This document shows, in pieces, positions 13,546 to 28,030 of a stretch of DNA of 64,000 nucleotides. The DNA is from Candidatus Angelobacter sp. Lineage in GTDB: Bacteria; Acidobacteriota; Terriglobia; Terriglobales; Acidobacteriaceae. The translations under genes and the position numbers were made by a program. How positions within the stretch are numbered: position 1 is the stretch's first letter; every line of letters starts with the position of its first letter. The stretch spans positions 24,125-88,124 of the forward strand of contig DASVFK010000250.1 in assembly GCA_036380095.1 (NCBI GenBank), in the 5' to 3' direction. The notes under the pieces are model-generated. The model made no database searches. It was given only the letters and a program-made list of their open reading frames with translations, and had not been told where the DNA came from.

Positions 13546-15183
13546 GTGAGAGCAGGCAACTTGACCCCCAACCCTACCCAATCCACACCCAGACAGCTGT
13601 TGCGCGTGCGTGACTTGTGTGTCGATTATCGCTTTGCATCGGTTAAGGTTGCCGCCTTGCAAAACGTAGATCTGGAACTGGGCGAAGGCGAGAGTCTGGG
13701 CGTGTTGGGAGAATCCGGATCGGGCAAGAGTTCCCTGGCACATGCGTTGCTCCGTCTCTTGCCCTCCGATGCGTCCGTCTCCGGGCTGGTGCAATTCCGG
13801 GAAACGGATTTACTGAACGCCCGCGCGAAGACCTTGCGTGAAATCCGCGGCGCCGGGATTGCTTTGATTTCGCAGGAGCCGGCCCTGGCGCTGAACCCTG
13901 TACTGCCCATTGGGCGGCAGATTGGCGACGTACTTCGCGCCCACGAGTCGGTCAACCGTAGGCAGGAGCGAGATCGCGTGGCCGGTGCGCTGCGCGAAGT
14001 TGGTTTGACCGAGCCTGAGCGTATCATGCGCGCTTATCCTCACCAGCTCAGCGGGGGGCAAAGACAGCGCGCTGCCATTGCTCAGGCGCTGGTGTGCCGG
14101 CCGGCGCTCCTGATTGCCGATGAACCGCTCAGCTCGCTTGACACGGCCACGCAGGCTGAAGTTCTGGAGCTGCTGCGCACCCTGAAAGCGGAACTCAACC
14201 TGGCCATGATCTTCATCTCGCACAACGCTGGAGCGTTCTCCTCTTTGTGTGAGCGCGCGTTGGTGATGCGCAATGGCCGGGCTGTTGCTTGTGCTTCCCT
14301 CGAGGAACTCGCCGAGACCGCTGATCCTTACATCCGTGGATTGCTGTTTCCGGAGGCCGCTTTTTTAGACGGATGCAAGACACCAGCGTCGCAGCCTCAA
14401 GCCGGCCGGCCGCTGCTCGAAGTGCGGAGCGTGAGCAAGAGGTTCATGCAGCGCAGGGCGCTTTCACGCAGCAAGTTTGCTGTCCAGGCCCTGGAGCACA
14501 TCGATCTCAGCGTGGATGAGGGCGCCACGCTCGCGGTCATCGGACGCTCGGGTTCGGGAAAATCCACGCTGGCCCGCTGCATCGCCGGTTTTGAAAGTCC
14601 CGACTCGGGTGAAATCGTGCTAGCAGGCCGCAAGCACGAATCCAGCCCCCAGGTGCAGATGATTTTCCAGGACGTGGGCACGGCGCTGAACCCGCGCTTC
14701 ACTGCCGCAGAGGTGATCAGCGAACCGCTGGACATCGCGCGTAAGAACGATCCTTTGGAGCGCCGCAAGCGCGCCCTGGACCTGATGGAAGAGGTCGGCC
14801 TTGATCCCGACTGGCAGGCCCGCCCCTCGCACCAGTTCAGCGGCGGCCAGCGGCAGCGGCTGGCTCTGGCCCGGGCTTTAGCGGCTGGGCCAAAACTTCT
14901 GGTCCTTGACGAACCCTTTTCCGGACTCGACCTGGCCTTACAGGCGCAGATGTTGCGGCTTCTCCTGGAGGTCCAGGCGCGCCACCGTCTCACCTGCATT
15001 TGGATCGGCCACGATCTTAGCTTCCTTTCTTATTTTGCCCGTGATGTCGTCGTCATGGACCAGGGCCGGGTGGTGGAACACACGGCTCCACAAGGCCTGC
15101 GGAGCAGCACAGTGCCGGCAACGCGTTTGTTGGTGGAAGCCAGCGATCGGCTGCATGCCCCGGGCGTAGAGGCTGTGTCATGA
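13546..15183 (+). CDS. fused double-ATPase subunit of an Opp/Dpp-type (peptide/nickel family) ABC importer
   Basis: Two full ABC cassettes. Walker A motifs GESGSGKSS and GRSGSGKST, signatures LSGGQRQR and FSGGQRQR, Walker B motifs LLIADEP and LLVLDEP. Confidence 0.9.
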   Translation: MRAGNLTPNPTQSTPRQLLRVRDLCVDYRFASVKVAALQNVDLELGEGESLGVLGESGSGKSSLAHALLRLLPSDASVSGLVQFRETDLLNARAKTLREIRGAGIALISQEPALALNPVLPIGRQIGDVLRAHESVNRRQERDRVAGALREVGLTEPERIMRAYPHQLSGGQRQRAAIAQALVCRPALLIADEPLSSLDTATQAEVLELLRTLKAELNLAMIFISHNAGAFSSLCERALVMRNGRAVACASLEELAETADPYIRGLLFPEAAFLDGCKTPASQPQAGRPLLEVRSVSKRFMQRRALSRSKFAVQALEHIDLSVDEGATLAVIGRSGSGKSTLARCIAGFESPDSGEIVLAGRKHESSPQVQMIFQDVGTALNPRFTAAEVISEPLDIARKNDPLERRKRALDLMEEVGLDPDWQARPSHQFSGGQRQRLALARALAAGPKLLVLDEPFSGLDLALQAQMLRLLLEVQARHRLTCIWIGHDLSFLSYFARDVVVMDQGRVVEHTAPQGLRSSTVPATRLLVEASDRLHAPGVEAVS

Positions 15184-16136
15184 TTCGCTACTTCGGGCGC
15201 AGGCTGTTTCACGCCGTGCTGGTCTTGTTCGGCGTTTCGCTGCTGATGTTCCTCGTGCAGCAGGCCGCACCCGGAGATTTTCTGAGTGAAATGAGGTTGA
15301 ACCCCCAGATTTCCCCGCAAGCGTTGCACACCTTGCGGGCGCAATACGGCCTGGATCAGCCGCTGCCCCTGCGCTATGCGCACTGGCTCAGCTTTGTGGC
15401 CAGAGGTGAATTCGGGTATTCCTTTGCTTACGACATGCCTGCTTCCAAACTCCTGTGGCCGCGCGCGCGGAACACTCTGCTGCTCACTGTGCCGGCCCTT
15501 CTTATCTCCTGGCTGATCGCGGTGCCTTTGGGCGTACTGGCCGCGGCACAGCGTGGGACCTGGCTGGGCCGGCTGTTCTCCGGCGGAACATCTTTTCTGC
15601 TGGCTGTGCCGGACGTCTTGCTTGCTTTGCTGGCGTTGATGATCGCCTTGCGCACCGGACTGTTTCCAGTGGGCGGAATGAGGTCCGCAGACCCGTCTCA
15701 CGGGCGGCTGGCAGACCTGGCGTGGCACATGGTCTTGCCCGTCGGCACACTGGTGCTCGGATCATTGCCTGTCATTTTGCGTCACGTACGCGCCGCCGTC
15801 TCCGAAACGCTCAGTTCTTGTTATGTGCGCGCGGCTGAAGGCCATGGGTTGCGTCAGTTGCCGCTCTTGTTCCGGCACGCGTTGCCTGCGGCCGCCAATC
15901 CGCTGATTTCCTTGTTCGGCATTTCCATTGCTTTCCTTCTGAGCGTCTCGCTCCTGGTGGAGACGGTGATGAGCTGGCCGGGAATGGGGCCGCTTTTGTT
16001 GGAGTCGATCCTGGCTCGCGATCTATTTGTGGTGCTCGGGGCCACCATGCTCTCCACGTTGTTCCCGCTGGCGGGGAACTTGATCGCGGACGTCCTGCTG
16101 TATGGTTTCGACCCGCGTATCAGGATGGAACCATGA
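15180..16136 (+). CDS. ABC transporter permease (OppB/DppB-like)
   Basis: ATGA overlap with the ATPase stop. N-terminus MIRYFGRRLFHAVLVLFGVSLLMF is typical of OppB/DppB. Multiple TM helices. Confidence 0.85.
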   Translation: MIRYFGRRLFHAVLVLFGVSLLMFLVQQAAPGDFLSEMRLNPQISPQALHTLRAQYGLDQPLPLRYAHWLSFVARGEFGYSFAYDMPASKLLWPRARNTLLLTVPALLISWLIAVPLGVLAAAQRGTWLGRLFSGGTSFLLAVPDVLLALLALMIALRTGLFPVGGMRSADPSHGRLADLAWHMVLPVGTLVLGSLPVILRHVRAAVSETLSSCYVRAAEGHGLRQLPLLFRHALPAAANPLISLFGISIAFLLSVSLLVETVMSWPGMGPLLLESILARDLFVVLGATMLSTLFPLAGNLIADVLLYGFDPRIRMEP

Positions 16137-17161
16137 GACAACGTCACGTATTTTCCTGGGCGGCGTGGTTCCTCGTGACGGTCAATGCCGCCGCGCTTCT
16201 GGCCGGGTTCGTCGCTCCCTACAACTACGAAACGCAGGACCGGCTACGTCCTTATGCGCCTCCCACGCGTCTCCACTTGGTGGATTGTGAAGGCAAGTTT
16301 CACTTCTGGCCATTCGTGTATATGACCAGGCCCGGCGGGGAGAGTCTCACGGAGTACCAAGAAGACTGTGGCCAGCGGTTTCCGGTTCGTTTCTTTCTGA
16401 GCGGCGACGGTTATACCGTGCTGGGATTGTTTTCGGGGCACCGCCATCTTTTTGGAGTTGATCTGCCCGCGCGCATGTACCTGTTGGGAGGAGATGGCCT
16501 GGGGCGCGACCAGTTTTCCCGCATGCTCTATGGCGCGCAGGTGTCCTTGTTTGCCGGCGCGCTGGCGGCCTTGCTCGCCATGATGGGGGGACTGCTGGTT
16601 GGTTCCATCGCCGGCGTTTACGGCGGGGCAATTGACGACTTATGCATGCGCGTTACCGAGGTCATTATCGCAGTCCCGCCATTTTATGTTTTGCTCGCCG
16701 TACGGGCGTTTCTGCCGCTGCAAGTGAGCGCACCGGTCATGTTCCTGGAGATCGTGGCTGTGCTTGGTTTCGTGGCCTGGGGACGCCCCGCGCGGCTGGT
16801 GCGAGGCGTTGTTTTGGGCGCGCGCGAACGCAGCTTTGTTCTGGCGGCGCAGGGATTCGGCGCGTCGCGGGCGTATCTGCTGCGACGTCACCTGATGCCT
16901 TTGGCCATGAACGCGGCGCTTACGCAGATGGCTGTTTCCATTCCCCAAATCATTCTTGGGGAAGTGGTCATCTCCTTCCTGGGGCTGGGCATGAGCGAGC
17001 CCGTTCCCAGTTGGGGCAACATGCTGGCCCAGGCGCAGCAATACCACGTGCTGACGGCACATTGGTGGATGCTGCTTCCGGCGCTGGCCCTGGTTCCAGT
17101 GACCCTGGCGTACCAGGCCTTGGCCGATGTTCTAGGTTCACGCTTGCAATCTCGAATTTGA
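16133..17161 (+). CDS. ABC transporter permease (OppC/DppC-like)
   Basis: ATGA overlap with the preceding permease. It has the long periplasmic N-terminal loop typical of OppC, followed by BPD_transp_1-like helices (LGGDGLGRDQFSRMLYGAQVSL). Confidence 0.85.
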   Translation: MRQRHVFSWAAWFLVTVNAAALLAGFVAPYNYETQDRLRPYAPPTRLHLVDCEGKFHFWPFVYMTRPGGESLTEYQEDCGQRFPVRFFLSGDGYTVLGLFSGHRHLFGVDLPARMYLLGGDGLGRDQFSRMLYGAQVSLFAGALAALLAMMGGLLVGSIAGVYGGAIDDLCMRVTEVIIAVPPFYVLLAVRAFLPLQVSAPVMFLEIVAVLGFVAWGRPARLVRGVVLGARERSFVLAAQGFGASRAYLLRRHLMPLAMNAALTQMAVSIPQIILGEVVISFLGLGMSEPVPSWGNMLAQAQQYHVLTAHWWMLLPALALVPVTLAYQALADVLGSRLQSRI

Positions 17162-17176
17162 GCCGATGGGAGAAGC

Positions 17177-18934
17177 ATGACGACTTTCAAATACTCGCGT
17201 TTTGTTTCGGTCCTAGCCCTCCTGGTTGGTTGCTTGAGCCTTCCGGGATTCGGCGGGTTGGCTCCGCAAGAGGAGCTTCTGACCACCACGGCGGAACCGG
17301 GACGGCCGGGAGGACGTTTGGCTATCGGGGAGCCGTTCGAGCCCAAGACCTTGAACCCGCTCAACGCGGTGGACCAACCGTCGCTCGATGTCATCCGCCG
17401 CACCATGGCTGATTTGATCCATATCAACCGGGCCACGCTGAAAGCGGAGCCGGCACTGGCCAAGTCGTGGACGGCCACTCCCGACGGCAAGACCCTTACC
17501 TTGCAGCTTCGCCGCGGGATCCGTTTTTCGGATGGAGCTCCGTTTGACGCCGATGACGTAGTCTTCTCCTTCCAGGTCTATCTCGATGAGAAAGTGGCCG
17601 CGCCACAACGCGTTTTGTTGCTGATCGATGACAAGCCGATCAAGGTGGAAAAACTCGGGCAATACACGGTGCGGTTTTCGTTTTCCGCGCCTTACGCCGT
17701 GGGAGAAAGGGTCTTTGACAGCGTGCCCGTCCTGCCCCGCCATCTTTTGGAGAAGGAGTACCAGGAGGGCCGCATCAAGCAGGTATGGACGCTCAGCGCT
17801 TCGCCGGCCAGCATGGCGGGCCTGGGACCTTTCCGGCTGAAATCAGTCGCCCCCGGCGAGCGAGTCGTGCTGGAGCGTAATCCTTACTATTGGAAAGTGG
17901 ACAGCAAGGGCCAGCGGCTTCCTTACCTCGATGAATTGAGTTTCGTCATGGTGCCCAATACGGAAGCCCAGGTGATTCGATTCATGGCTGGCGACATTCA
18001 GGCAATCAGTCCCTTGAGCGCCGATGGCTACGCCTCCCTGGCTCCCGACCAGCAGAAACATCACTACAAACTGTACGACATGGGCGCGGGACTGGAATTC
18101 AATTTCCTATTTTTCAATCTCAATGAAGACACGGAAGGCCGGTTGCCGGAGGTCGCGCGCAAGCAAGCCTGGTTCAGAGACGTACGCTTTCGCCAGGCGG
18201 TCTCGCGCGCCATCGACCGGCAGGCGATCGCCCGGCTGGCATACCACAACCGGGCCACACCGCTGGTAACCCATGTGACGCCGGGAGACAAGCTGTGGTT
18301 CGATTCCTCCCTCGCTGCGCCCTCGCAATCGCTGCCGGAAGCGCGGCGGCTCTTGCAGCAAGCCGGCTTTTCCTGGAAGCCGGACGGGGCGCTGGTTGAC
18401 TCCCATGGCACGCGCGTGAGTTTCAGCATTCTGGCCAACTCGGGCAACGCCCAGCAGACGCAAAGCGCAACCTTGATCCAAAGCGACCTAAGCAAGCTGG
18501 GGATGGACGTGCACGTTGTTACGCTGGAGTTCCGTGCCACCGTGGACCGCATCCTGCAGTCCCATGATTACGACGTCGCCGTGATGCGCATGGCCAATGG
18601 TGACGCCGATCCCAATCCCGTGATGGGCATTCTCACCTCGGAGGGCTCCACGCATGTGTGGAGCATGGGGGAAAAGAAACCGCCCCAGTGGCAGTTGGAA
18701 ATCGACCGCCTGATGCAGCAGCAGATGATCACGCTGGACTTTCGCAAGCGCAAGAAACTCTATGATCAAGTGCAGCAGATCCTGGCGCGCGAAGTCCCGG
18801 CCCTTTTTCTGGTGAGCCCCAATATCCTGGTGGCGGCCCGGGAAAATCTCGCCAATGTGCGTCCCGCTATAATGGACAACTACATTCTGTGGAATTCAGA
18901 CGAACTGTTTTGGCGCACCCCCGCCGGAAAATAA
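17177..18934 (+). CDS. ABC transporter substrate-binding protein, family 5 (peptide/nickel)
   Basis: Signal peptide or lipoprotein-like N-terminus. Size of 585 aa and motifs (LNPLNAVDQPS..., ERNPYYW) are typical of SBP_bac_5. It is the last gene of the transporter block. Confidence 0.85.
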   Translation: MTTFKYSRFVSVLALLVGCLSLPGFGGLAPQEELLTTTAEPGRPGGRLAIGEPFEPKTLNPLNAVDQPSLDVIRRTMADLIHINRATLKAEPALAKSWTATPDGKTLTLQLRRGIRFSDGAPFDADDVVFSFQVYLDEKVAAPQRVLLLIDDKPIKVEKLGQYTVRFSFSAPYAVGERVFDSVPVLPRHLLEKEYQEGRIKQVWTLSASPASMAGLGPFRLKSVAPGERVVLERNPYYWKVDSKGQRLPYLDELSFVMVPNTEAQVIRFMAGDIQAISPLSADGYASLAPDQQKHHYKLYDMGAGLEFNFLFFNLNEDTEGRLPEVARKQAWFRDVRFRQAVSRAIDRQAIARLAYHNRATPLVTHVTPGDKLWFDSSLAAPSQSLPEARRLLQQAGFSWKPDGALVDSHGTRVSFSILANSGNAQQTQSATLIQSDLSKLGMDVHVVTLEFRATVDRILQSHDYDVAVMRMANGDADPNPVMGILTSEGSTHVWSMGEKKPPQWQLEIDRLMQQQMITLDFRKRKKLYDQVQQILAREVPALFLVSPNILVAARENLANVRPAIMDNYILWNSDELFWRTPAGK

Positions 18935-18941
18935 AAAGTGA

Positions 18942-19538
18942 ATGGACGACAACGCCAAGAGCATTACTTTGCCAGCGCCAAAGGAAATTGAGGCCGAAGA
19001 CGAAAGGCTGGTCCAGGATTGCCTGAAAGGGGACGAAAAGGCATGGAACCGCCTGATCGACAAATACAAGCGGTTGATCTATTCGGTCCCGGTCAAATAC
19101 GGCGTTGCTCCGGAAGACGCAGCCGACATCTTTCAGAACGTCTGTGTCGACCTGTTCACCAACCTTTCCAAGCTGAGAAAAATTGAGTCGCTGCGGTCCT
19201 GGCTCATTACCGTGGCCACGCACAAGTGTTTCCATCACAAAAGGCAGCAGCGGCAGGACGTTGAACTGGACGCGATGGAGCAGGAAGTGGCGGAAGATCT
19301 GGCGCCGGCGGCCGAGACGGTGCTCCACGAAGTGCAGGAAGAGCAGGCCATACGCGACGCCCTGGCGCGGCTCACGCCTCGCTGTGCGGAACTGGTGAAG
19401 ATGCTGTTCTATGAACAGCCGCCGGTGCCCTATACCGAAGTTGCCCAGAGACTCGGCCTGGCCACCGGGTCCATCGGATTCATCCGCGGGCGATGTCTCA
19501 ACCGGCTGCAAAAGATTCTGGCGGAGCTGGGGTTCTAG
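18942..19538 (+). CDS. ECF-type sigma-70 family RNA polymerase sigma factor
   Basis: Region 2 (RLIYSVPVKYGVAPEDAADIFQNVCVDLF) and a region 4 HTH (YTEVAQRLGLATGSIGFIRGRCLNRL). It starts 7 nt after the SBP stop. Confidence 0.85.
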   Translation: MDDNAKSITLPAPKEIEAEDERLVQDCLKGDEKAWNRLIDKYKRLIYSVPVKYGVAPEDAADIFQNVCVDLFTNLSKLRKIESLRSWLITVATHKCFHHKRQQRQDVELDAMEQEVAEDLAPAAETVLHEVQEEQAIRDALARLTPRCAELVKMLFYEQPPVPYTEVAQRLGLATGSIGFIRGRCLNRLQKILAELGF

Positions 19539-22397
19539 ATGTCGCAGGTTGGTACATTTGCGCCGGAACCGTGGATTTCCGAACTCTCGGCAATTAGCGA
19601 AGAGCAGGGACGCCGGGAGTTCTTGTCACGCCAGGCCCACCGCCAAAGCGAAAAATCGCTGCAGGCGCTGCTGGATGGCGTGGCCACGTTTGCCCGCTTC
19701 GATGTGCCCAAGGCAGAGCGCCTGTCCCAGGCCCTGGCTTGGATCGCCACAGAAAGCGGCGACCCCTATGCTCTGGCGCAAAGCCGGCGGGCCTCTGGTC
19801 ATGTGCATTACCTCAACGGCAGATACCGGCAGGGAATCGAGGAGTACGAAAAGGCCATCCAGGAATTGGACCGTTTGGGGCGTCACGTGGAGGCCGCGAG
19901 CACGATCAGCGCCGCCCTCATATGCTTGATCTACGACGGGCAGTACGACCGCGCCTATCAGCTCGGCAAAAAGGCCCGCGAGGCGTTCCAGGCGGCTGGG
20001 GACCGACACCGCCTGGCCAGGCTTGATAGCAACCTGGCCAACGTCTATTACCGACAAGACCGCTTTCAGGAGGCGGGCGCGCTGTTTGAGCGCGCCTATA
20101 GCGAACTTCTTGAAGTGGGAGACCCACTGGACATCGCGGTGGTCCTGCGCAATATGGCGGTCTGCTACATCAGCCTGAACGAGTTTGCGCAAGCGCAGGA
20201 AACCTATCAGTTGGCCCGCCAGCACTCGGAAAGACATGGTTTTTCCCAACTGGTCGCCGAATCCGATTACAACATCGCCTACCTGCACTATCTGCGCGGC
20301 GAATACTTGCGCGCCATCGAGATGTACGACCAGACGCGGGTGCGCTGTAAGCAGCTCGGCGACAAGTACCACCAGGCCCTGTGTGACCTTGACCAGTCGG
20401 AGATTTATCTGGAGTTGAACCTGACTGAGGGGGGCATCGAACTGGCGCAAGATGCTTTTGCCGCTTTCAGCGACCTGGGGATGCGCTATGAGGCGGCCAA
20501 AGCGGCCACGTTCTCCGCCATCGCGGTCAGCCAGCAGGGGCATTATCGCCAGGCCCTGCAGATTTTCGACCGTGCCCGGGAGCTGTTTATCAATGAGCAG
20601 AACCAGCTCTGGCCGGCGCTGATCGATCTCTACAAGGCACTGGTGCTTTACGAAGCCGGCGACAATGACTCGGCGGAAGACCTTGCTTTGTCCGCCCTGG
20701 AATACTTCGCTCCCTCTTACCTGCCGGCCAAAGCCGCTTTATGCGAACTGTTGCTGGCTGCCATCGAATTGCGCAGCTCCGATGCCGACGAGGCGCGGCG
20801 ATACTGCAGCTCCGCCCTGGCCCGCTTGCTGCACATCGAGTCCCCTGCCACCTACCAGGCGTATTTCATGCTGGGCCAGGCCGAGGAAGCCAGCCGTAAC
20901 ACTGAGCTGGCGCGCCAGGCCTATGAGAAGGCCTATCAGAAGCTGGAGGACCTGCGCAGCCACCTGGGCAAGGAAGAGCTGAAGATCGCGTTTCTCAAGA
21001 ACAAACTCACGGTTTATGAAAGCCTTGTCCTAACATCGCTGGCGGTCCATTCGCGCACCTGCACGGAGCACGATACGTTCCAGTACATCGAACAGGCAAA
21101 ATCACGCAGCCTGGCTGACCTGATTGCCTTCCGTGCGTCTTCGCTCAACGCCAGGAACCTTGAGCATGCTCCCGCCATGGCCCAGTTTCGCGAGCTGCGC
21201 CAGAAACTGAACTGGACCTACCATGAAATCGAATTGCAGGAATTGGGCCAGGAAGGCGGTTCGCAGGACCGCATCCGGCAATTGCGCCTGCAAAGCCGGG
21301 AGTACGAAGACGCTCTGGTCAAGTCCTTCTCCCAATTGCAGAGCGTTGACTATGAGCTCGCCAGCCTGCAAAGCGCCAGCACCGTCTCTGCGCGCGAGCT
21401 GCAAAAGATTCTGCCTCCTGACTCGATGCTGGTGGAGTATTACGTTGCCCGTGACCGGTTCTACGTTTGCCTAGTCTCCCGAGACCGCCTCAAGGTACTG
21501 CCGGTGGCGGACGCCGTCCCGGTACGGGAAAAGCTTCGACTTCTGCAATTGCAGTTGGCGAAATTCCGCCTGGGAGACGAGTACATCCGGCCGCTGGAGA
21601 AGCGCTTGTTGCAGGCGACGCGGGCGCACCTTGAGGAACTCTACGAGTTGCTGATCGCCCCCATCCGTGGGCAGCTCGAGGCCCATCACCTCATCATTGT
21701 GCCCCACACGTTTCTGCACTACCTGCCCTTCCATGCCCTGTCTGACGGAAAACGGCATCTGATTGACGATTTTTCCATCTCCTACGCACCCAGCGGGAGC
21801 ATTTTTGCCGCGTGCCAAGGCAAGGAACATGCCAGCCAGAGCGGCTTGGTGCTGGCCATCCCGGACGCCCGTGCTCCATACATTGAAGAGGAAGGTCGGC
21901 TGGTGGCAGACGCCATGGGCGGGGCAAGTTTGTTCCTGGGTGAGGATGCTACCGAGGAACGCTTGCGCAGCCTGGGACCGCAGAGCCGGTTCATCCACAT
22001 TGCCACGCATGGATATTTTCGTGAGGACAATCCCATGTTCTCTTCCATTCGGCTGGGGAATTCTCTTCTGAGCCTATTTGACCTGTATCAGTTACAGCTA
22101 AACGCTGAGCTGGTGACCTTGAGCGGTTGTGGCACGGGAATGAATGTTGTGGTGGGCGGCGATGAACTGATCGGCCTGGTGCGGGGTTTGCTCTATGCTG
22201 GGGCGCAAACCCTGATGGTGAGCTTGTGGGAGGTGCACGATCAGAGTACGGCCGAGTTCATGCGCGATTTCTATACCTTGTATGGTGGAGTCCAGAACAA
22301 GGCGGAAGCCCTTCGCCAGGCTGCGCTCAGACTGCGCGAAACCCACCCACATCCGTATTATTGGGCGGCCTTCGCCCTGGTTGGGAAGTTTATGTAA
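19539..22397 (+). CDS. TPR-repeat CHAT-domain (caspase-like peptidase) protein
   Basis: Its ATG directly abuts the sigma-factor TAG (TAGATG). The N-terminal two-thirds is TPR-like. The C-terminal CHAT domain has the His/Cys dyad context FIHIATHGYF ... LVTLSGCGTG. Confidence 0.85.
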   Translation: MSQVGTFAPEPWISELSAISEEQGRREFLSRQAHRQSEKSLQALLDGVATFARFDVPKAERLSQALAWIATESGDPYALAQSRRASGHVHYLNGRYRQGIEEYEKAIQELDRLGRHVEAASTISAALICLIYDGQYDRAYQLGKKAREAFQAAGDRHRLARLDSNLANVYYRQDRFQEAGALFERAYSELLEVGDPLDIAVVLRNMAVCYISLNEFAQAQETYQLARQHSERHGFSQLVAESDYNIAYLHYLRGEYLRAIEMYDQTRVRCKQLGDKYHQALCDLDQSEIYLELNLTEGGIELAQDAFAAFSDLGMRYEAAKAATFSAIAVSQQGHYRQALQIFDRARELFINEQNQLWPALIDLYKALVLYEAGDNDSAEDLALSALEYFAPSYLPAKAALCELLLAAIELRSSDADEARRYCSSALARLLHIESPATYQAYFMLGQAEEASRNTELARQAYEKAYQKLEDLRSHLGKEELKIAFLKNKLTVYESLVLTSLAVHSRTCTEHDTFQYIEQAKSRSLADLIAFRASSLNARNLEHAPAMAQFRELRQKLNWTYHEIELQELGQEGGSQDRIRQLRLQSREYEDALVKSFSQLQSVDYELASLQSASTVSARELQKILPPDSMLVEYYVARDRFYVCLVSRDRLKVLPVADAVPVREKLRLLQLQLAKFRLGDEYIRPLEKRLLQATRAHLEELYELLIAPIRGQLEAHHLIIVPHTFLHYLPFHALSDGKRHLIDDFSISYAPSGSIFAACQGKEHASQSGLVLAIPDARAPYIEEEGRLVADAMGGASLFLGEDATEERLRSLGPQSRFIHIATHGYFREDNPMFSSIRLGNSLLSLFDLYQLQLNAELVTLSGCGTGMNVVVGGDELIGLVRGLLYAGAQTLMVSLWEVHDQSTAEFMRDFYTLYGGVQNKAEALRQAALRLRETHPHPYYWAAFALVGKFM

Positions 22398-22401
22398 AGA
22401 T

Positions 22402-22412
22402 TTGTAAATATT
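22402..22412 (+). promoter_or_regulatory. AT-rich motif TTGTAAATATT (copy 1), upstream of the anti-sigma-like gene
   Basis: The identical 11-mer recurs at 24792..24802 upstream of the second S8 peptidase. Both lie in AT-rich islands within GC-rich DNA. Function not established. Confidence 0.3.
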
Positions 22413-22549
22413 AGAGCAGGTATATTTTTTACCCTGGTTCTGACTCTTTATGTACAGAAGCAGGCTCATCCGTCGACTGCTAAAGAGGGGAGCATGGACC
22501 CGGAAGCCGTGTTCCCCTCGTAAACAAAAGAGACGAAGAAAAACGATTT

Positions 22550-23185
22550 ATGCCTCAAGCCGCGCGCCATTTCGACATTACCGAGTGGGCTGATTATGCC
22601 AGGAAGACGGCATCTCCCGAGCAGCAAAGCGAGATGGCGTCTCACCTGAAGGCTGGATGCCCGAAGTGCGAAAAGATCGAGCAATTATTGACGAAATTCA
22701 TTGCAGTCTGCGCGCGTGAGAGCGCGTATGAATTACCTCGACACGCAGAGCGGTCAGTGAAGGCGCTGGCGGGTCTGGGAAAACCCGAGCGTCGCTCGAC
22801 GTTCGAGCGGCTGTGGGGCACCTTGATATTTGATAGCTCGAATGCCCCGCTGCCGGTGGGTGTCCGCGGATCTCATCAAATCAGCCGGCATGTGCTGTTT
22901 CATGCGGGCGATTACTCCGTTGATCTGCGATTTGAGCATGAAAGAGGTTCGGCCAGTATGGTGCTCGTGGGACAGATTGCCAACCAGAAGTCGCCCGAAG
23001 AGGCGATGTGCAATCTGCCAGTGATCCTGCTGGCGGGTGAGCGGGAAGTGTCGCGCTCCATTAGCAATTCCTACGGAGAGTTCCAGATGGAATATGTTCC
23101 GGACAGCGATCTGCGCCTGTTGGTTCCCCTTGAGTCAACCGGCCAGGAGCTCGAGGTATTGCTGGGCAAGACGCCGCAAGCCTGA
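22550..23185 (+). CDS. soluble anti-sigma-factor-like protein (zf-HC2-like N-terminus, beta-sandwich C-terminus)
   Basis: The N-terminal HLKAGCPKCEKIEQL resembles the H-x3-C-x2-C anti-sigma zinc motif, with one extra residue. There is no TM helix. The C-terminal part resembles carboxypeptidase-regulatory-like folds (GEFQMEYVPDSDLRLLV). Confidence 0.45.
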   Translation: MPQAARHFDITEWADYARKTASPEQQSEMASHLKAGCPKCEKIEQLLTKFIAVCARESAYELPRHAERSVKALAGLGKPERRSTFERLWGTLIFDSSNAPLPVGVRGSHQISRHVLFHAGDYSVDLRFEHERGSASMVLVGQIANQKSPEEAMCNLPVILLAGEREVSRSISNSYGEFQMEYVPDSDLRLLVPLESTGQELEVLLGKTPQA

Positions 23186-23224
23186 TTTTTGTAGGGGCCA
23201 ATTTGAACAACTGAGACGTCGACT

Positions 23225-24637
23225 ATGAGGACACTGCGTCTGCTGTGCATTACCGGTCTTGTGTTTGCGCTCGGCCTGCCTGTGGCCGCGCAGAGCACTT
23301 TTGTTCTAACCGTTGCGCCCGCTAATGCCCAGACGGTCCTCACCAGCCACGGTCTTACTGTCATCAAAGAGATCCATGATGGCGCAAACTGCGTCTATCT
23401 GGTACGTTCCGCTTCCGCCGATGTAGCCAGCGTTGAAACGGAAGTTGAAAAAGACCTCTTGGTCGCCGGCTTTGAGCCCGAGCAAAGTATTGGTCTGCCG
23501 GAGCTCAGTGGGGCCACTCAGTCAAATCTTACGCAAGCCACCGCTACGGTCACGGGCACCCTGCCCGGGCGTACGCTGGTCACCTTCTTCGGAAGCACAG
23601 TTCCCAGCAATTACACCAGCCAGGCGGCCACCAGCATCGTTCGCTTGGATGATGCCCGCAACGCTACTCATCTCACGGGCGCGGGGACGGTGGCGATCAT
23701 CGATACCGGGGCAGATCCGAACCATCCAGCGTTGGCTGGCGTTTTCGTAGGCGGATACGACTTTACCCGCGACACAATTGGATTTTCAGAGCTTGCGGAC
23801 CTGGATCCAAACACGGCCGCTGCTCTGCAGCAGTCGATTTCGCCTATCCTTGGCTCGCAGAACGTTTACATTCTTAATCCATACACTGCCGCCATCCTGG
23901 ACCAGTCGATCTCGCCCATCCTGGGACAATCGATTTCGCCGATTCTCGGCGGCACCGGTGATTTTGGCCACGGCACCATGGTGGCAGGCGTGGTCCACCT
24001 GGTAGCGCCCACCGCCAAGATCATGCCCTTGAAGGCATTTCGCGCCGATGGAACATCGAATCTTTCCGATATCATTAACGCCGTCTATTACGCTGCGGAC
24101 AACGGGGCCAACGTCATCAGCATGAGCTTCAGCATGCCGCAGTCTTCCCCTGGGCTTCAGACTGCGATCCAGTACGCCCTCAACAAGAACATTGCCGTTG
24201 TCGCCGCCTCCGGCAATGACGGGCAGAAGACCCTGGTTTTCCCGGCAAGCTACGGCGGCGTGCAGGGAATCGGCTCCACGGACTCCAACGACGCGAGAAG
24301 CACGTTCTCCAATTACGGCTCTGGCGTGACGGCTTTTGCGGCCCCGGGCGAAGCCGTAATTACCACTTTCCCAGGCGGCTATTACGCCGCAGGCTGGGGT
24401 ACTTCCTTCAGCGCTCCCATGTTCGCCGGCGCAGCTTCCCTCGTGCTCCAGGCACGTCCATTGAGCAAGCCGGGAGATGTAACCAACGCTCTTTCAAAGA
24501 CCAAGCAGGTAAGCGATATGGGTTATGGCCGCATTGACCTCTACCAGTCGCTTACGAACTTGTTTAGTGGCAGCACGAGCACCAGCGGTGGCAGCGGGAC
24601 CAGCGGCAGCAATACCAGCGGCTCCTCCAAACCATAA
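23225..24637 (+). CDS. secreted S8 family serine peptidase (subtilase) with I9-like propeptide
   Basis: Signal peptide. Catalytic contexts VAIIDTGAD (Asp), GHGTMVAG (His), ASGNDG (Asn) and GTSFSAPMFAG (Ser). Three QSISPILG repeats lie between Asp and His. Gly/Ser/Thr-rich tail. Confidence 0.9.
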   Translation: MRTLRLLCITGLVFALGLPVAAQSTFVLTVAPANAQTVLTSHGLTVIKEIHDGANCVYLVRSASADVASVETEVEKDLLVAGFEPEQSIGLPELSGATQSNLTQATATVTGTLPGRTLVTFFGSTVPSNYTSQAATSIVRLDDARNATHLTGAGTVAIIDTGADPNHPALAGVFVGGYDFTRDTIGFSELADLDPNTAAALQQSISPILGSQNVYILNPYTAAILDQSISPILGQSISPILGGTGDFGHGTMVAGVVHLVAPTAKIMPLKAFRADGTSNLSDIINAVYYAADNGANVISMSFSMPQSSPGLQTAIQYALNKNIAVVAASGNDGQKTLVFPASYGGVQGIGSTDSNDARSTFSNYGSGVTAFAAPGEAVITTFPGGYYAAGWGTSFSAPMFAGAASLVLQARPLSKPGDVTNALSKTKQVSDMGYGRIDLYQSLTNLFSGSTSTSGGSGTSGSNTSGSSKP

Positions 24638-24642
24638 TCCCG

Positions 24643-24668
24643 TCAAGGATTCGGCCTTGGTTTTTTTA
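24643..24668 (+). terminator. rho-independent terminator (TCAAGG-ATTCGG-CCTTGG + T7)
   Basis: Short GC stem followed by TTTTTTT, starting 6 nt after the S8 stop codon. Confidence 0.6.
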
Positions 24669-24791
24669 TTAAGCCCTCTTAATCCTTGCACCTCTTAATC
24701 TGCCAAGAAATGAACTTCAGACCAACGAATGTTGCACGAAACCTTCGCCCTGTGAGCACCTGCCCAGCTTGCCTTTGTCTGATTTAAGTTA

Positions 24792-24802
24792 TTGTAAATA
24801 TT
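24792..24802 (+). promoter_or_regulatory. AT-rich motif TTGTAAATATT (copy 2), upstream of the second S8 peptidase
   Basis: Identical 11-mer to 22402..22412. Followed by GTATTTATATATG. Confidence 0.3.
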
Positions 24803-25008
24803 GTATTTATATATGAATCAGGGGATTCATCCCTGGGCTTAAGGATGGTCCGGGATGAGTCCAACCGTTAGCTTGAATAAATTTGCTCTAACAAAAGCGT
24901 ATTTCTCGTGGCTATACTGACCACCTATTATTCAGCAACACTGACTTTCGCAACGAAATACGAGGAGCCAGGTGTCGTCGACGGAAACGACCACCCGGAG
25001 TTGGAGAG

Positions 25009-26343
25009 ATGGCTAAAGGACGGATTACCGGTCGAACACTCTGCTTGTTCCTGCTTTTGCTGGGACTTCCCCTGATGGCCGAGGACAAGTATGTCCTGGT
25101 TACGTCGCCATCCAAGGTACAGGACGTTTGCAGCCGTCACGGGTTGCAGCCGGTTTCCCAGCTTTCCAGCAGTTCATCAGCAGGTGTTTTTCTTGTTTCC
25201 ACGGCATCGATTGATCCCACTCTCGCCACAGATTCTGATGTACAGAGCTTTGAGCTTAATCGAACAGTGGGCGTGCCGGAGCTTTCCGGGCTTACCGTCT
25301 CCAGCCTGACGCAGTCCATTTCGCCCATTCTGGGCCAGTTGCCAGGGCGGCAAGCGGTGTCCTACTTCGGGGCATCCGTCGCCAACTATTACGTAACGCA
25401 GCCTGCGAGTTCCATCACACGATTGGCAGATGCCCAATCCGCATCCAGCCTTATCGGTACGGGAATTACGGTAGCCATAGTCGATACAGGCGTGGACCTT
25501 GATCATCCTGCATTGCAGGGCGTGCTGGTGAGTGGTTACGACTTTGTGAAGAACGGCGCGCTGGTATCTGAGGTAGCGGACCTGGGCCCGAACGCGGCCG
25601 GCTTGACCCAGTCGATCAGTCCCATCCTGGGCGGGGTCAATGTGGTGCAATTGAATGCATCCACGGCGGCGATCCTGAGCCAGGCGGCGGAAGACGCGCT
25701 GGGTACTCCGCCTGCGGCCTTCGGCCACGGTACCATGACGGCCGGCGTGGTGCACCTGATAGCTCCGGGCTCGAAGATCATGCCGCTCAAGGCATTTGCC
25801 GCTGACGGCAGCTCTGACCTGTTCAACATCCTGCGCGCGATCTATTACGCCGTGGACCATGGCGCCACCGTGATCAGCATGAGCTTTGAGATTTCCCAGA
25901 GCTCTCCGGCGCTGCAGAATGCGATCCAGTATGCGCTGAGCAAGAACGTTGTCCTGGTGGCGGCCTCCGGTAATGACGCCCAGCAGATCATGGTCTATCC
26001 CGCTGGATACAACAACGTAATCGGCGTGGGATCAACCAGTAACACCGATGGTAAGAGTGACTTTACCAATTTCGGAACCAATGCCACTTTTGTGGCGGCT
26101 CCAGGCGAAGGCGTGATTACCACTTATCCCGGAGGCAACTATGCCGCCGGCTGGGGAACTTCATTCAGCACTCCGCTGGTGGCCGGTGAAGCTGCGTTGA
26201 TCTTGCAAGCAAGACCTGCCTACCATCCTGGGGACGTTGCCAATGCGGTTTCCAGGGGTGTCCAGGTGCAGCAGATGGGTCACGGACGCGTAGATATTTG
26301 CCAGGCGATCTCGAGCCTGGGGAACGGCCTTAAATGCCAGTAA
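25009..26343 (+). CDS. secreted S8 family serine peptidase (subtilase), paralog of 23225..24637
   Basis: Signal peptide. Catalytic contexts VAIVDTGVD, GHGTMTAG, ASGNDA and GTSFSTPLVAG. Two QSISPILG motifs: one in the propeptide region and one between Asp and His. Confidence 0.9.
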   Translation: MAKGRITGRTLCLFLLLLGLPLMAEDKYVLVTSPSKVQDVCSRHGLQPVSQLSSSSSAGVFLVSTASIDPTLATDSDVQSFELNRTVGVPELSGLTVSSLTQSISPILGQLPGRQAVSYFGASVANYYVTQPASSITRLADAQSASSLIGTGITVAIVDTGVDLDHPALQGVLVSGYDFVKNGALVSEVADLGPNAAGLTQSISPILGGVNVVQLNASTAAILSQAAEDALGTPPAAFGHGTMTAGVVHLIAPGSKIMPLKAFAADGSSDLFNILRAIYYAVDHGATVISMSFEISQSSPALQNAIQYALSKNVVLVAASGNDAQQIMVYPAGYNNVIGVGSTSNTDGKSDFTNFGTNATFVAAPGEGVITTYPGGNYAAGWGTSFSTPLVAGEAALILQARPAYHPGDVANAVSRGVQVQQMGHGRVDICQAISSLGNGLKCQ

Positions 26344-26416: not shown

Positions 26417-28030
26417 TCAGAACAACCCCGCGCCCATTTGCGCATAGCGGCGGAAGAAACTGTCGCTCTTCCATTGTGGACGCTTGTCGTCATTAGCCAC
26501 CCGCAGCATCAGGGAGCGCACAATCTCTTCATAGCCGGCCGCCGAGGACAGGTCCACCGGCTGGTCAAGATCGTCAGAAGGCGCGTGGTAGCGCTGTGTC
26601 AGCCAGTTCTTGAACAGTTGCTGTTCCGGCGAGCCTTTCTCAAAGCCCACGCCCATGGCCAGCGCGGGAATGCCCTGGCGGATAAAGTTGTATTGATCGC
26701 TGCGAATGAAGGCGTTGCGCTGCGGTTCGGGATCGGGTTGCACTTGCACACCCAGGGCCTTGGCGCTCTCTTGCGCCGCATCGCCCAGGTCGGATTCAGC
26801 AAGTCCGTACACCGTGAGGACCTTCAACGGCACGATCGGCAGAAACATATCGATATTGATGTTGGCCACCATGGAGCCGGGCTTTACCGTGGGATGAGCG
26901 TTGAAGTAGCGCGAGCCCAGCAGCCCTTTCTCTTCGCCGGTAACAAAGAGGAACAGCACGGACCGCCGGGGACGCGTTCCGGACTTGCGCAGGCACTCCG
27001 CCAGGTCGAGCAGGAGCGCGCTCCCGGAAGCGTTGTCCATGGCGCCGTTGTAAATGCGGTCGCCGTTAATGGGCTCGCCGATCCCGATGTGGTCGATGTG
27101 CGCCGAGACCACCACGTATTCGTCTTTCAGTTTCGGGTCAGCGCCGGCGAGCTTGGCCACCACGTTGGCCGATTCCAACTGCTTCTTGTTCACGGTTGCG
27201 CGTACCCGGATGCTCAGGCCCAGGGGAAAGCGGGGAAGCGCCTTGCGCTCTCTTGCCAGGTCAAGAATGCCCTGCAGTTTGTGCCCGGAATTCTCAAACA
27301 GTTTGTCAGCCCGCTCCGGATTGAAGATGACGGCCAGTTGTTGTCCCGCGGTTTCATCGAATTCTTTTCCGCTCAGCGCCATGCTGGGGTGGGCCCGATT
27401 GGCCGCGATCCGGCTCCAGGGAATGTCCATGGAGGCGGGATTCAGGACCGTGATTACGCCCACCGCGCCCGCTTTCTTCAGCGCTTTCCAGCGCTCGGCT
27501 TGCGACGAGTAGTGCGAGGCCAAGGCGCCAGGCAGCTCAGCGGGAGATCCTGCCATCATCACCGCGACCTTGCCCTTAAGGTCCTGCCCGGCCAGGTCGT
27601 CATAGCCCTTTTCCGGGACTGAGAGCCCATAGCCCACAAACACCAGGGATGCCTGCAGCGAAGGCGCAAGATCAACGCGAGTGGAGAAGATGGCGTCCTC
27701 GCCCAGCGTCAGCGGCTCCACCAGGTTCTTGTTGATCAGGGCCAGGCTGGACGTTGCCTCCACAATCTGCCGCGACTCGAACTGTACTGGCTGGTAAAAA
27801 CCATTGGCGCCGGCCGGCTCCAGTTCGCTCATCTTCAGTTGGTCCACCAGATAGGCTTCCGCGCGGCGAAGTCCAGCGCTGCCGGTTTCGCGGCCTTCCA
27901 TGTCGTCCGCCGCCAGCACCTTCACATAACCCCACCAACTGTTGCCGTCAAAATGTTTTTCTGCCTGCTGGGAAAGCGAGGGCAAGACGAGGATTCCACT
28001 TGCGGCCAGACACAGCAACATTCTTCTCAT
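26417..28030 (-). CDS. secreted M28 family metallopeptidase with PA (protease-associated) domain
   Basis: Signal peptide MRRMLLCLAASGILVLPSLSQQ. PA-like GKVAVMMAG. M28 zinc-ligand contexts SAHIDHIG, NGAMDNASGSA and FVTGEEKGLLGS. Confidence 0.85.
   Translation of the reverse strand: MRRMLLCLAASGILVLPSLSQQAEKHFDGNSWWGYVKVLAADDMEGRETGSAGLRRAEAYLVDQLKMSELEPAGANGFYQPVQFESRQIVEATSSLALINKNLVEPLTLGEDAIFSTRVDLAPSLQASLVFVGYGLSVPEKGYDDLAGQDLKGKVAVMMAGSPAELPGALASHYSSQAERWKALKKAGAVGVITVLNPASMDIPWSRIAANRAHPSMALSGKEFDETAGQQLAVIFNPERADKLFENSGHKLQGILDLARERKALPRFPLGLSIRVRATVNKKQLESANVVAKLAGADPKLKDEYVVVSAHIDHIGIGEPINGDRIYNGAMDNASGSALLLDLAECLRKSGTRPRRSVLFLFVTGEEKGLLGSRYFNAHPTVKPGSMVANINIDMFLPIVPLKVLTVYGLAESDLGDAAQESAKALGVQVQPDPEPQRNAFIRSDQYNFIRQGIPALAMGVGFEKGSPEQQLFKNWLTQRYHAPSDDLDQPVDLSSAAGYEEIVRSLMLRVANDDKRPQWKSDSFFRRYAQMGAGLF

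Follow-up and report, generated by a model that had tools for sequence, protein, structure and literature searches.

The two secreted subtilases considered here, S8-1 and S8-2, are encoded by neighbouring genes in a 64,000 nucleotide stretch of a Candidatus Angelobacter sp. genome (Acidobacteriota; assembly GCA_036380095.1, contig DASVFK010000250.1, positions 24,125 to 88,124), the whole of which is referred to below as the window. They lie downstream of genes for a peptide importer, an extracytoplasmic function (ECF)-type sigma factor, a protein combining tetratricopeptide repeats (TPR) with a caspase-like CHAT protease domain (TPR-CHAT) and a soluble protein designated p211 (Table 1). Both subtilases contain the octapeptide QSISPILG. 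An earlier reading of the DNA without database searches (the sequence-only reading) had reported five copies of this peptide, the same in amino acids but different in codons. A six-frame search of the window recovered exactly these five matches, three in S8-1 and two in S8-2, with none elsewhere; the chance expectation for further exact matches is approximately 5e-6. The five 24 nt versions are all distinct and differ at synonymous sites only.

Both proteins are matched by the Pfam Peptidase_S8 model (PF00082; S8-1, E 8e-36 and 124 bits; S8-2, E 4e-37 and 128 bits; cut-off 21.8) and have the DTG, GHGT and GTSFS motifs of the catalytic Asp, His and Ser, with D160, H249 and S394 of S8-1 being invariant in family alignments. 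Signal peptides are predicted in both. The catalytic Asp and His are 89 residues apart in S8-1, in agreement with the 85-90 estimated by the sequence-only reading, and 81 apart in S8-2, compared with approximately 32 in subtilisin BPN'. An AlphaFold2 (AF2) model of S8-1 generated from an 84-sequence multiple sequence alignment (MSA) gave a predicted local distance difference test score (pLDDT) of 84.5 and a predicted TM-score (pTM) of 0.84, whereas a model from a 32-sequence MSA was unusable (pLDDT 48). In the former, residues 24-90 form an I9-like propeptide (pLDDT 81-97) and the top Foldseek matches were unautoprocessed pro-subtilisin E (3whi) and pro-Tk-subtilisin (2e1p). This combination of I9-like propeptide and catalytic domain is that of a subtilase zymogen. 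Two more specialised assignments were rejected. The mycosin model (TIGR03921) scored 136 and 146 bits against an equivalog cut-off of 278.75, and the PatA/PatG cyanobactin protease model (TIGR03895) scored 67 and 76 bits against a cut-off of 421, with no PatE-like precursor or heterocyclase in the gene cassette.

The sequence-only reading had described the repeats as inserted between the catalytic Asp and His, but had assigned one copy of S8-2 to the propeptide region. Four of the five do lie between Asp and His, the other being on the tail of the I9-like propeptide of S8-2. In subtilases the propeptide tail sits in the active-site cleft. The tandem copies of S8-1 stop 6 residues short of Gly-His249. 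The only internal segments of the S8-1 model with low confidence are residues 96-112, the propeptide tail at the position of copy 1, and residues 205-242, a 38-residue loop (23837-23950) that holds the insert copies just before the catalytic His. The helix at 189-203, which forms the first part of the insert, was modelled confidently and short strands were assigned within the loop at 214-218 and 221-224. Because the copy-bearing segments are those of low confidence they are probably flexible and accessible to proteases, and the model thus suggests that the copies probably lie in exposed segments, one of them at the site of subtilase autoprocessing. Some family members have an extra 300-residue domain; it follows copy 1, which remains on the propeptide tail. 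At their C-termini the two proteins differ. S8-1 (24560-24634), like its orthologs, has a terminal low-complexity tail rich in Ser, Thr and Gly. This tail varies in length, often finishes in K, KP or KL and may serve as a linker or in sorting or glycosylation, whereas the orthologs of S8-2 have no such tail and end in a Cys-containing motif (GLKCQ, GSFCK).

Each protein also has a degenerate copy. On the propeptide tail of S8-1, where most orthologs have an exact copy, the sequence is QATATVTG, differing from QSISPILG at five of the eight positions, and in S8-2 the sequence QAAEDALG is found where its orthologs have a third exact copy. In the sub-lineage of the window together with orthologs P0002-P0004, the propeptide-tail copy of S8-1 is close to the family consensus (QATATVTG, QSTAAVTD), whereas every other copy has switched to QS[IM]SPIL[GT]. 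This suggests that the propeptide-tail site of S8-1 is under a different and looser constraint than the other copies.

Comparison with related proteins, all of which derive from metagenome-assembled genomes (MAGs), showed that the octapeptide is not peculiar to the window. It was present at the same four positions in all 120 of the 120 best S8-1 homologs (70-85% identity). A scan of one genome per species identified 77 loci, in Acidobacteriota MAGs only, with S8 identity down to 40% and a distribution that takes in Terriglobia/Ca. Angelobacter, Bryobacterales, Solibacter, Thermoanaerobaculia, Vicinamibacterales and Acidiferrales. In a sample of 356 proteins, 355 had between 2 and 31 identical copies of an 8-mer beginning with Q at conserved offsets from the catalytic His. 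This sample contained 42 variants of the form Q-S-T-x-x-I-L-D/E in which positions 1, 2, 6, 7 and 8 are the most conserved, positions 4-5 vary and position 3 varies less often. Among representatives at 50% identity, at least two identical 8-mers were found in 124 of 149, giving approximately 75 such variants. Within a protein the copies are almost always identical, as are those of the two paralogs at a locus, whereas related genomes differ. Neither Pfam nor NCBIfam has a curated model covering these proteins, and literature searches with eight octapeptide strings, with combinations of ECF, CHAT and subtilisin, and for insertions in Acidobacteria subtilases returned nothing on this feature; CHAT is not mentioned in the main text of the paper reclassifying ECF sigma factors. 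To our knowledge no subtilase has been described with identical octapeptides between Asp and His that are uniform across paralogs and vary between lineages. QSISPILG is the local form of a hallmark octapeptide of a large, apparently undescribed S8 subfamily of the Acidobacteriota. The sequence-only reading had held that a structural element common to a known subtilase subfamily, buried, not cleavable and with no link to the gene context, would undermine its case. The motif is indeed common to its subfamily, but that subfamily is undescribed, and the motif varies between genomes, is probably exposed and is linked to its context, as detailed below.

Rare mixed octapeptide states were seen in P0002, P0004, P0010, L033 g1 and P0333, and these look like transitions. 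In P0333 two variants that differ at position 5 (QSTVSLLN, nine copies; QSTVALLN, five copies) are interleaved at the propeptide tail and in the insert, which may represent a dual-signal or a transitional state. The MAG QHYU01, which contains the L033 cassette, also has an S8 paralog on another contig (L035, 5880-7265) with no ECF, CHAT or p211 gene nearby. This paralog carries five copies of QSTASILD, the genome-specific octapeptide of the cassette-linked pair, and identity therefore seems to be enforced genome-wide, beyond the cassette.

Copy number is greatly expanded in some members. P0188 (L081, 10001-12295) has 31 copies of QSTGAILD, 30 of them at the propeptide tail in blocks of 3-6 that are separated by a conserved spacer, GATRKQFGSARGxxRx. 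These 31 copies are written in 29 DNA versions with no amino-acid change. P0300 has 15 copies of QSTGAILD in higher-order repeats with the same type of spacer (blocks of 2-6 units across the two proteins), and further expansions are present in P0333 (9+5) and P0277 (7). To judge from its sequence, the P0188 type of array has the architecture of a multi-copy peptide precursor and would be hard to explain as a processing site only. It is reminiscent of yeast alpha-factor, neuropeptide polyproteins and cyanobactin PatE, in which many identical units are encoded by synonymous codons, sometimes with conserved spacers as in P0188 and P0300. Those precursors are dedicated carriers, whereas in the present case an active enzyme is the carrier and probably carries out the processing as well.

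The sequence-only reading had argued that selection acts on the amino-acid sequence and not on a DNA repeat, and this is borne out by the codons. Copies of the same peptide differ at 5.3-5.5 of 24 nt (4.2 for tandem neighbours) compared with 6.1-6.9 expected of independent synonymous draws, such that synonymous divergence between copies stands at 70-80% of saturation, and identical DNA occurs in no more than 1% of 895 same-peptide copy pairs. Where related loci differ by Thr or Ser at position 3, orthologous copies show 3.8 differences and non-orthologous copies 5.5, which indicates that synonymous fingerprints have been kept, and the switch took one of two forms, ACC<->AGC or ACC<->TCC, depending on the copy. 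These differing codon routes and retained fingerprints indicate that seven sites in two genes changed through independent point mutations. In a tree of the octapeptide-free catalytic core all S8-1 orthologs separate from all S8-2 orthologs, and the duplication therefore predates diversification of the peptide. The peptide tracks the genome and not the gene tree; S8-2 of the window is nearest to L003 S8-2, which has QSTATILD, yet it carries QSISPILG. Because synonymous divergence is near saturation and a single switch has been made by different codon routes, it can be concluded that the copies are kept identical by peptide-level selection through parallel point mutation and not by gene conversion. 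A DNA-level repeat made uniform by slippage or gene conversion, encoding a peptide with no function, might be proposed on the grounds that duplication does happen, as is evident from the tandem units and higher-order repeats. The same codon data, with the 29 DNA versions for 31 identical peptides in P0188, reduce the probability of this explanation practically to nil, and conversion or slippage was rejected as the source of identity.

The S8 genes are part of a conserved gene cassette. From the importer ATPase through to S8-1 the gaps between genes are -4, -4, 15, 7, 0, 152 and 39 nt. The order SBP5, ECF, TPR-CHAT, p211 and S8, with a second S8 in some, recurs in essentially all of the approximately 80 loci with sufficient flanking sequence, and holds in different classes of the phylum at S8 identities as low as 40%. 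The association of the motif with S8 genes in a CHAT/ECF neighbourhood, which the sequence-only reading had proposed to check, is a tight one. SBP5, the substrate-binding lipoprotein of the importer, is retained in nearly all related loci with sufficient upstream sequence. It has a signal sequence, whereas TPR-CHAT, p211 and the ECF sigma factor have neither a signal peptide nor a transmembrane segment. The CHAT domain (PF12770, 221 bits) has the dyad of a caspase-like protease, with conservation of both His824 (54 of 55 sequences) and Cys864 (53 of 53). It aligns to structures of the craspase protease Csx29, although the Csx29 NCBIfam model (NF041237) scores 53 bits against a cut-off of 300. 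The TPR part is similar to the TPRs with which kinesin light chain (KLC) and LGN/Pins bind peptides. The N-terminal motif of p211 is similar to that of zinc-binding anti-sigma (ZAS; zf-HC2) domains, with a spacing one residue longer than the canonical H/C...H-x3-C-x2-C. PADLOC, which covers known anti-phage defence systems, assigned the cassette to none of them; it found only generic subtilase/IetS similarity for the S8 proteins and no match for CHAT, p211, ECF or SBP5.

Table 1. Positions in the window of the subtilase genes, their octapeptide copies and the surrounding cassette
Feature	Position	Strand	Remarks
Fused ABC ATPase of Opp/Dpp-type peptide importer	13546-15183	+	
Permease of the same importer	15180-16136	+	
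Permease of the same importer	16133-17161	+	
SBP_bac_5 lipoprotein (SBP5)	17177-18934	+	
ECF-type sigma factor	18942..19538	+	7 nt downstream of SBP gene; abuts CHAT gene
TPR-CHAT protease, predicted cytoplasmic	19539..22397	+	CHAT domain residues 696-950; His824/Cys864 dyad
TPR segment, residues 111-217	19869..20189	+	8 co-segregating columns; wider island residues 1-220 (19539-20198)
p211, soluble; ZAS-like N-terminus, C-terminal beta-rich domain	22550..23185	+	H7...H32-x4-C37-x2-C40
S8-1, secreted subtilase zymogen, 470 aa	23225..24637	+	Signal peptide, I9-like propeptide, catalytic domain D160/H249/S394
Degenerate propeptide-tail copy QATATVTG, S8-1	23534..23557	+	Exact copy here in most orthologs
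QSISPILG, insert copy 'a', S8-1	23831..23854	+	Residues 203-210; family-conserved position ~-46 from catalytic His
QSISPILG, two tandem copies, S8-1	23903..23926, 23927..23950	+	Residues 227-234, 235-242; family-conserved positions -22, -14
Terminator-like hairpin, then AT-rich spacer	24642-25008		Between S8-1 and S8-2
S8-2, paralog with the same octapeptide, 444 aa	25009..26343	+	54% identical to S8-1; D159/H240/S385
QSISPILG, propeptide tail of S8-2	25312..25335	+	Residues 102-109
QSISPILG, Asp-His insert of S8-2	25609..25632	+	Residues 201-208
Degenerate copy QAAEDALG, S8-2	25681..25704	+	Third exact copy at this site in S8-2 orthologs
M28 aminopeptidase, secreted, PA domain	26417-28030	-	Convergent to S8-2

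A relationship between the octapeptide and TPR-CHAT became apparent when loci with different peptides were compared. Mantel-type tests of covariation were treated as exploratory only, because the loci are phylogenetically non-independent, and were replaced by tests on matched and single-use pairs and by a natural contrast. At matched background divergence, divergence in TPR-CHAT residues 1-230 is 1.45-2.4 times higher for pairs of loci whose octapeptides differ than for pairs sharing a peptide, with no effect of peptide type in ECF, the CHAT domain or p211. When each locus was used once the ratio of TPR divergence to background was approximately 2.0 for different peptides and approximately 1.0 for the same peptide. 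The natural contrast was between 8 QSSTSILD loci and 8 QSTTSILD loci that are interspersed on the background tree. All eight of the columns outside S8 that separate the two types perfectly fall in TPR residues 111-217; none were found in SBP5 (561 columns), ECF (198), p211 (211) or residues 218-952 of the CHAT protein. Inside S8 the two types are separated at position 3 of each of the four copies and in no other column. Differentiation in sliding windows was close to zero except in TPR-CHAT residues 1-220, in a minor peak at 300-360 and in the copy-bearing S8 windows, and a tree of TPR residues 100-230 groups loci of shallow clades by peptide type. As the intervening genes do not co-segregate, simple linkage does not explain this pattern, which points to co-adaptation of the TPR segment 111-217 and the octapeptide. 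The spacing of several of the columns, at 33-35 residues (111/145, 160/193, 182/217), corresponds to equivalent positions of successive TPR repeats and suggests that they may lie on one face of the TPR superhelix. Two further contrasts (QHTAAMLD/QHTAAMVD and QSTTSILD/QSTSGILD) coincide with clades and are uninformative.

Several other features of the cassette deserve mention. The intergenic region between TPR-CHAT and p211 (22398-22549) contains a block, AGAAGCAGGCTCATCCGTCGACTGCTAA...GGACCCGGAAGCCG, that is at least 85% conserved in 27 related loci and includes a stable hairpin at approximately 22485-22518 (RNA fold z-score -3.8). This block could be a leader, an attenuator or a processing element for p211 and S8-1. 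Rfam had no match in 22350-25060, and scanning for promoters revealed no meaningful excess. Immediately after the S8-1 stop codon there is a terminator-like hairpin with a T-run, and the AT-rich spacer before S8-2 contains a conserved TGGCTATACT at approximately 24912-24921 that is similar to an extended -10 element. On the basis of the hairpin and of TGGCTATACT, S8-2 probably has its own sigma-70-type promoter, apart from the main operon. In L081 a gene for a sigma-54-type response regulator sits between TPR-CHAT and the p211 homolog. The M28 aminopeptidase gene downstream of S8-2 is kept in position in the close relatives and also in L034, a deeper locus, but is absent from this position in most of the distant loci; its product could trim released peptides or could be unrelated.

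Taken together these data allow a circuit to be proposed. The S8 zymogens would be exported and the exposed octapeptide units cut out during or after autoprocessing, such that each protease molecule would give rise to a fixed number of identical peptides. These would be imported by the co-operonic SBP_bac_5/ABC transporter and, in the cytoplasm, would bind the N-terminal TPR groove of TPR-CHAT and switch on the caspase-like CHAT domain. CHAT would then cleave p211, a putative soluble anti-sigma factor, and so free the ECF sigma factor. The octapeptide would in this way act as a protease-embedded signal by which a cytoplasmic sigma/anti-sigma switch is informed that protease has been exported or activated, with peptide import taking the place of the usual route through intramembrane proteolysis. 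We regard the whole chain, from protease-released octapeptide through import and sensing by TPR-CHAT to freed sigma factor, as evenly poised between being right and being wrong. Three roles had been put forward by the sequence-only reading. A releasable peptide is the best fit, given the 15- and 31-copy arrays, the importer and the TPR segment, with release itself a predicted step; a pseudo-substrate or autoinhibitory loop may be a sub-step. Cleavage of the copies by the neighbouring CHAT protease, in the form first put forward, is disfavoured on topological grounds, since signal peptides are present in both S8 proteins but absent from the CHAT protein. The suspected link to the CHAT gene nevertheless appears to be real, since the CHAT protein appears to recognise the peptide through its TPR domain.

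The proposed logic of secreted precursor, cut by extracellular proteases, SBP_bac_5 import and cytoplasmic TPR reader resembles that of the RRNPPA systems (Rap-Phr, NprR-NprX, PlcR-PapR, PrgX-cCF10 with the OppA-like PrgZ, and AimR-AimP), in which peptide and receptor also diversify together. The RRNPPA pheromones are imported by Opp, read by TPR receptors and are sometimes tandemly duplicated (PMC9765709, PMC11343458). An Opp-type importer in the operon and covariation of peptide and TPR are likewise found here, with import and binding as predicted steps. There are also differences. RRNPPA systems are described from the Bacillota and their mobile elements; the precursor here is the catalytic protease itself, with copies between its catalytic Asp and His; and the reader would lead to a caspase-like CHAT protease, in place of a helix-turn-helix (HTH) or Rap-type output, and finally to an ECF sigma/anti-sigma pair. 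Searches with the general profiles of Pfam and NCBIfam found TPR and CHAT but no HTH. There is also no small adjacent propeptide gene: allowing up to two mismatches, the octapeptide had no match outside the S8 genes in any locus, within approximately 8 kb around. Pheromones embedded in the precursor of another protein are known from enterococci.

The output side of the proposed circuit has its closest parallels in CHAT-associated systems. The craspase of type III-E CRISPR systems (Csx29) cleaves Csx30 and thereby releases an ECF-like sigma factor, and its TPR-CHAT protease gene also lies beside the genes for that sigma factor (CASP-sigma) and its protein inhibitor (PMC10028731). In contrast, the module described here has no Cas7-11 and no RNA trigger, has an S8 protease and a peptide importer, and in every locus its cassette is free of cas genes; the candidate inhibitor p211 has a ZAS-like motif. 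DdvA similarly forms one signalling unit in which TPR-CHAT is combined with an ECF sigma factor and an anti-sigma domain that binds zinc (PMC11506125). In DdvA, however, TPR-CHAT is fused to the anti-sigma domain and is periplasmic, whereas here the two are predicted to be separate, soluble and cytoplasmic, from which it follows that a signal must enter the cell. The upstream side is comparable to pro-subtilisin E and pro-Tk-subtilisin, which have the same zymogen fold (the octapeptide of S8-2 falls on the propeptide tail, where autoprocessing occurs), and to the proprotein convertases, which have repeated cognate sites in the prodomain. By the tests applied, all of them comparisons of sequence and gene content, the feature appears to fall outside the RRNPPA, craspase, mycosin and PatA/G families. 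By analogy, the circuit would combine peptide signalling that depends on import with the release of a sigma factor under CHAT control. Its precursor would be without precedent, being an active protease with the signal placed between its own catalytic residues.

A number of points weigh against the proposed circuit. Cleavage, release, import and binding of the octapeptide are all steps that we infer, and Leu7 is a plausible P1 residue for a subtilase but does not define a product frame. The low pLDDT of the loops could come in part from misalignment of the repeats in the MSA. Clean covariation with the TPR segment comes from one contrast (Ser/Thr at position 3) in 16 MAG loci, the other two being confounded by phylogeny, and the lack of a specificity signal in SBP5 in that contrast fits a promiscuous OppA-type binder but adds no support. 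No Pfam or NCBIfam model matches p211, even at E up to 5, and its assignment as a ZAS-like anti-sigma factor is suggested by its motif and by gene order. S8-2 has no evident ECF promoter and seemingly has one of the sigma-70 type with an extended -10, such that a feedback logic is not apparent.

One alternative is that the octapeptides are processing sites of the protease itself, cut on the propeptide tail first and then in the loop before the His, that any peptide set free is without function, and that the importer just takes up products of proteolysis as nutrients. Stepwise activation of zymogens through repeated cognate sites is known for furin and S1P, and the match of the fold to pro-subtilisin, the invariable presence of copy 1 on the I9-like propeptide tail (even with the 300-residue domain inserted after it) and the position of the remaining copies in a loop ending 6 residues before the catalytic His would all be expected of such sites. 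However, the catalytic core of S8 is undifferentiated between QSS and QST loci, and the junction copy of S8-1 in the window departs from QSISPILG at most of its positions, from which exact identity is apparently unnecessary for maturation. It is also difficult to see why a change as conservative as Thr/Ser, at a distance of five residues from the probable scissile bond, should be copied into all seven sites of two genes, and both the 15-31-copy arrays and the co-segregating TPR segment are left unexplained. We therefore consider this explanation unlikely as a full account; it is compatible with the peptide-release circuit as a sub-step of it. Recognition might instead take place wholly in the cytoplasm, with TPR binding, and CHAT perhaps cleaving, the octapeptides on unexported S8 precursor as a sensor of secretion stress or a control of protease dosage. 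This would be a topologically feasible form of the CHAT cleavage suggested by the sequence-only reading. Co-segregation of TPR and peptide fits this equally well, the CHAT dyad is conserved and the conserved I/V-L-D/E end of the octapeptide resembles a reported craspase site, after the L in IDLD (PMC11506125). On the other hand both S8 proteins have canonical signal peptides, the tightly co-operonic and phylum-wide peptide importer would have no role, and the arrays on the propeptide tail look like an amplifier of product and not like a degron. Our assessment is that such a sensor is decidedly improbable.

The two remaining explanations concern the nature of the repeated unit. The copies could be structural beta-strands that pair with each other, or with the propeptide copy, in the folded zymogen. 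The motif does alternate between polar and hydrophobic residues and, as noted above, short strands were assigned in the loop, but the model, confident elsewhere, is at its least confident in the segments that hold the copies. A structural role would also have to accommodate a copy number of 2-31, identity held across two separate proteins and an association with the TPR segment of a cytoplasmic protein, and we give it very little credence. Little short of negligible is the probability that the S8 proteins are akin to precursors of ribosomally synthesised and post-translationally modified peptides (RiPPs), with repeated cores that are modified to a natural product as in cyanobactins and borosins. 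Identical 8-residue units are repeated in cassette-like fashion and there are weak, S8-level matches to PatA/PatG, but these scores (67-76 against 421) are far below the cut-off, the conserved cassette has no modifying enzymes and the octapeptide has neither Cys nor typical RiPP recognition flanks.

Beyond the circuit as proposed, the octapeptides could be true intercellular pheromones and as such the first case of peptide quorum- or kin-sensing in the diderm soil phylum Acidobacteriota, although we are inclined to doubt it. If this were true, signal strength would report how much active exoprotease is kept near the cell ('efficiency sensing'), given a fixed yield of peptides per secreted protease molecule, and the lineage-specific pairs of peptide and TPR would be pherotypes reserving the benefit of the secreted protease for kin. 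Close relatives include an interspersed mixture of QSS and QST types, and related genomes of different type can co-occur in one sample series; both would fit diversifying, pherotype-like selection.

The repeated octapeptide is a real feature that far exceeds chance expectation and has apparently not been described before. Whatever the mechanism, it is a very clean example of concerted evolution by selection, in which up to seven copies in two genes have been kept the same by parallel point mutations. The hypothesis is directly testable with peptides and purified proteins, and the evolutionary evidence is unusually clean. The peptide variants, each presumably paired to its own TPR allele as for QSS and QST, could provide orthogonal peptide/protease switches for synthetic biology. 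If the proposed circuit is correct, a natural ligand would be in hand for a stand-alone bacterial TPR-CHAT protease, and an extracytoplasmic signal would reach a soluble anti-sigma factor without intramembrane proteolysis. A hard-to-culture soil phylum would then be using a peptide signal encoded within the catalytic domain of a secreted protease and read by a caspase-like TPR-CHAT protease controlling an ECF sigma factor, and import-dependent peptide signalling, hitherto a speciality of the Bacillota, would extend to diderms.

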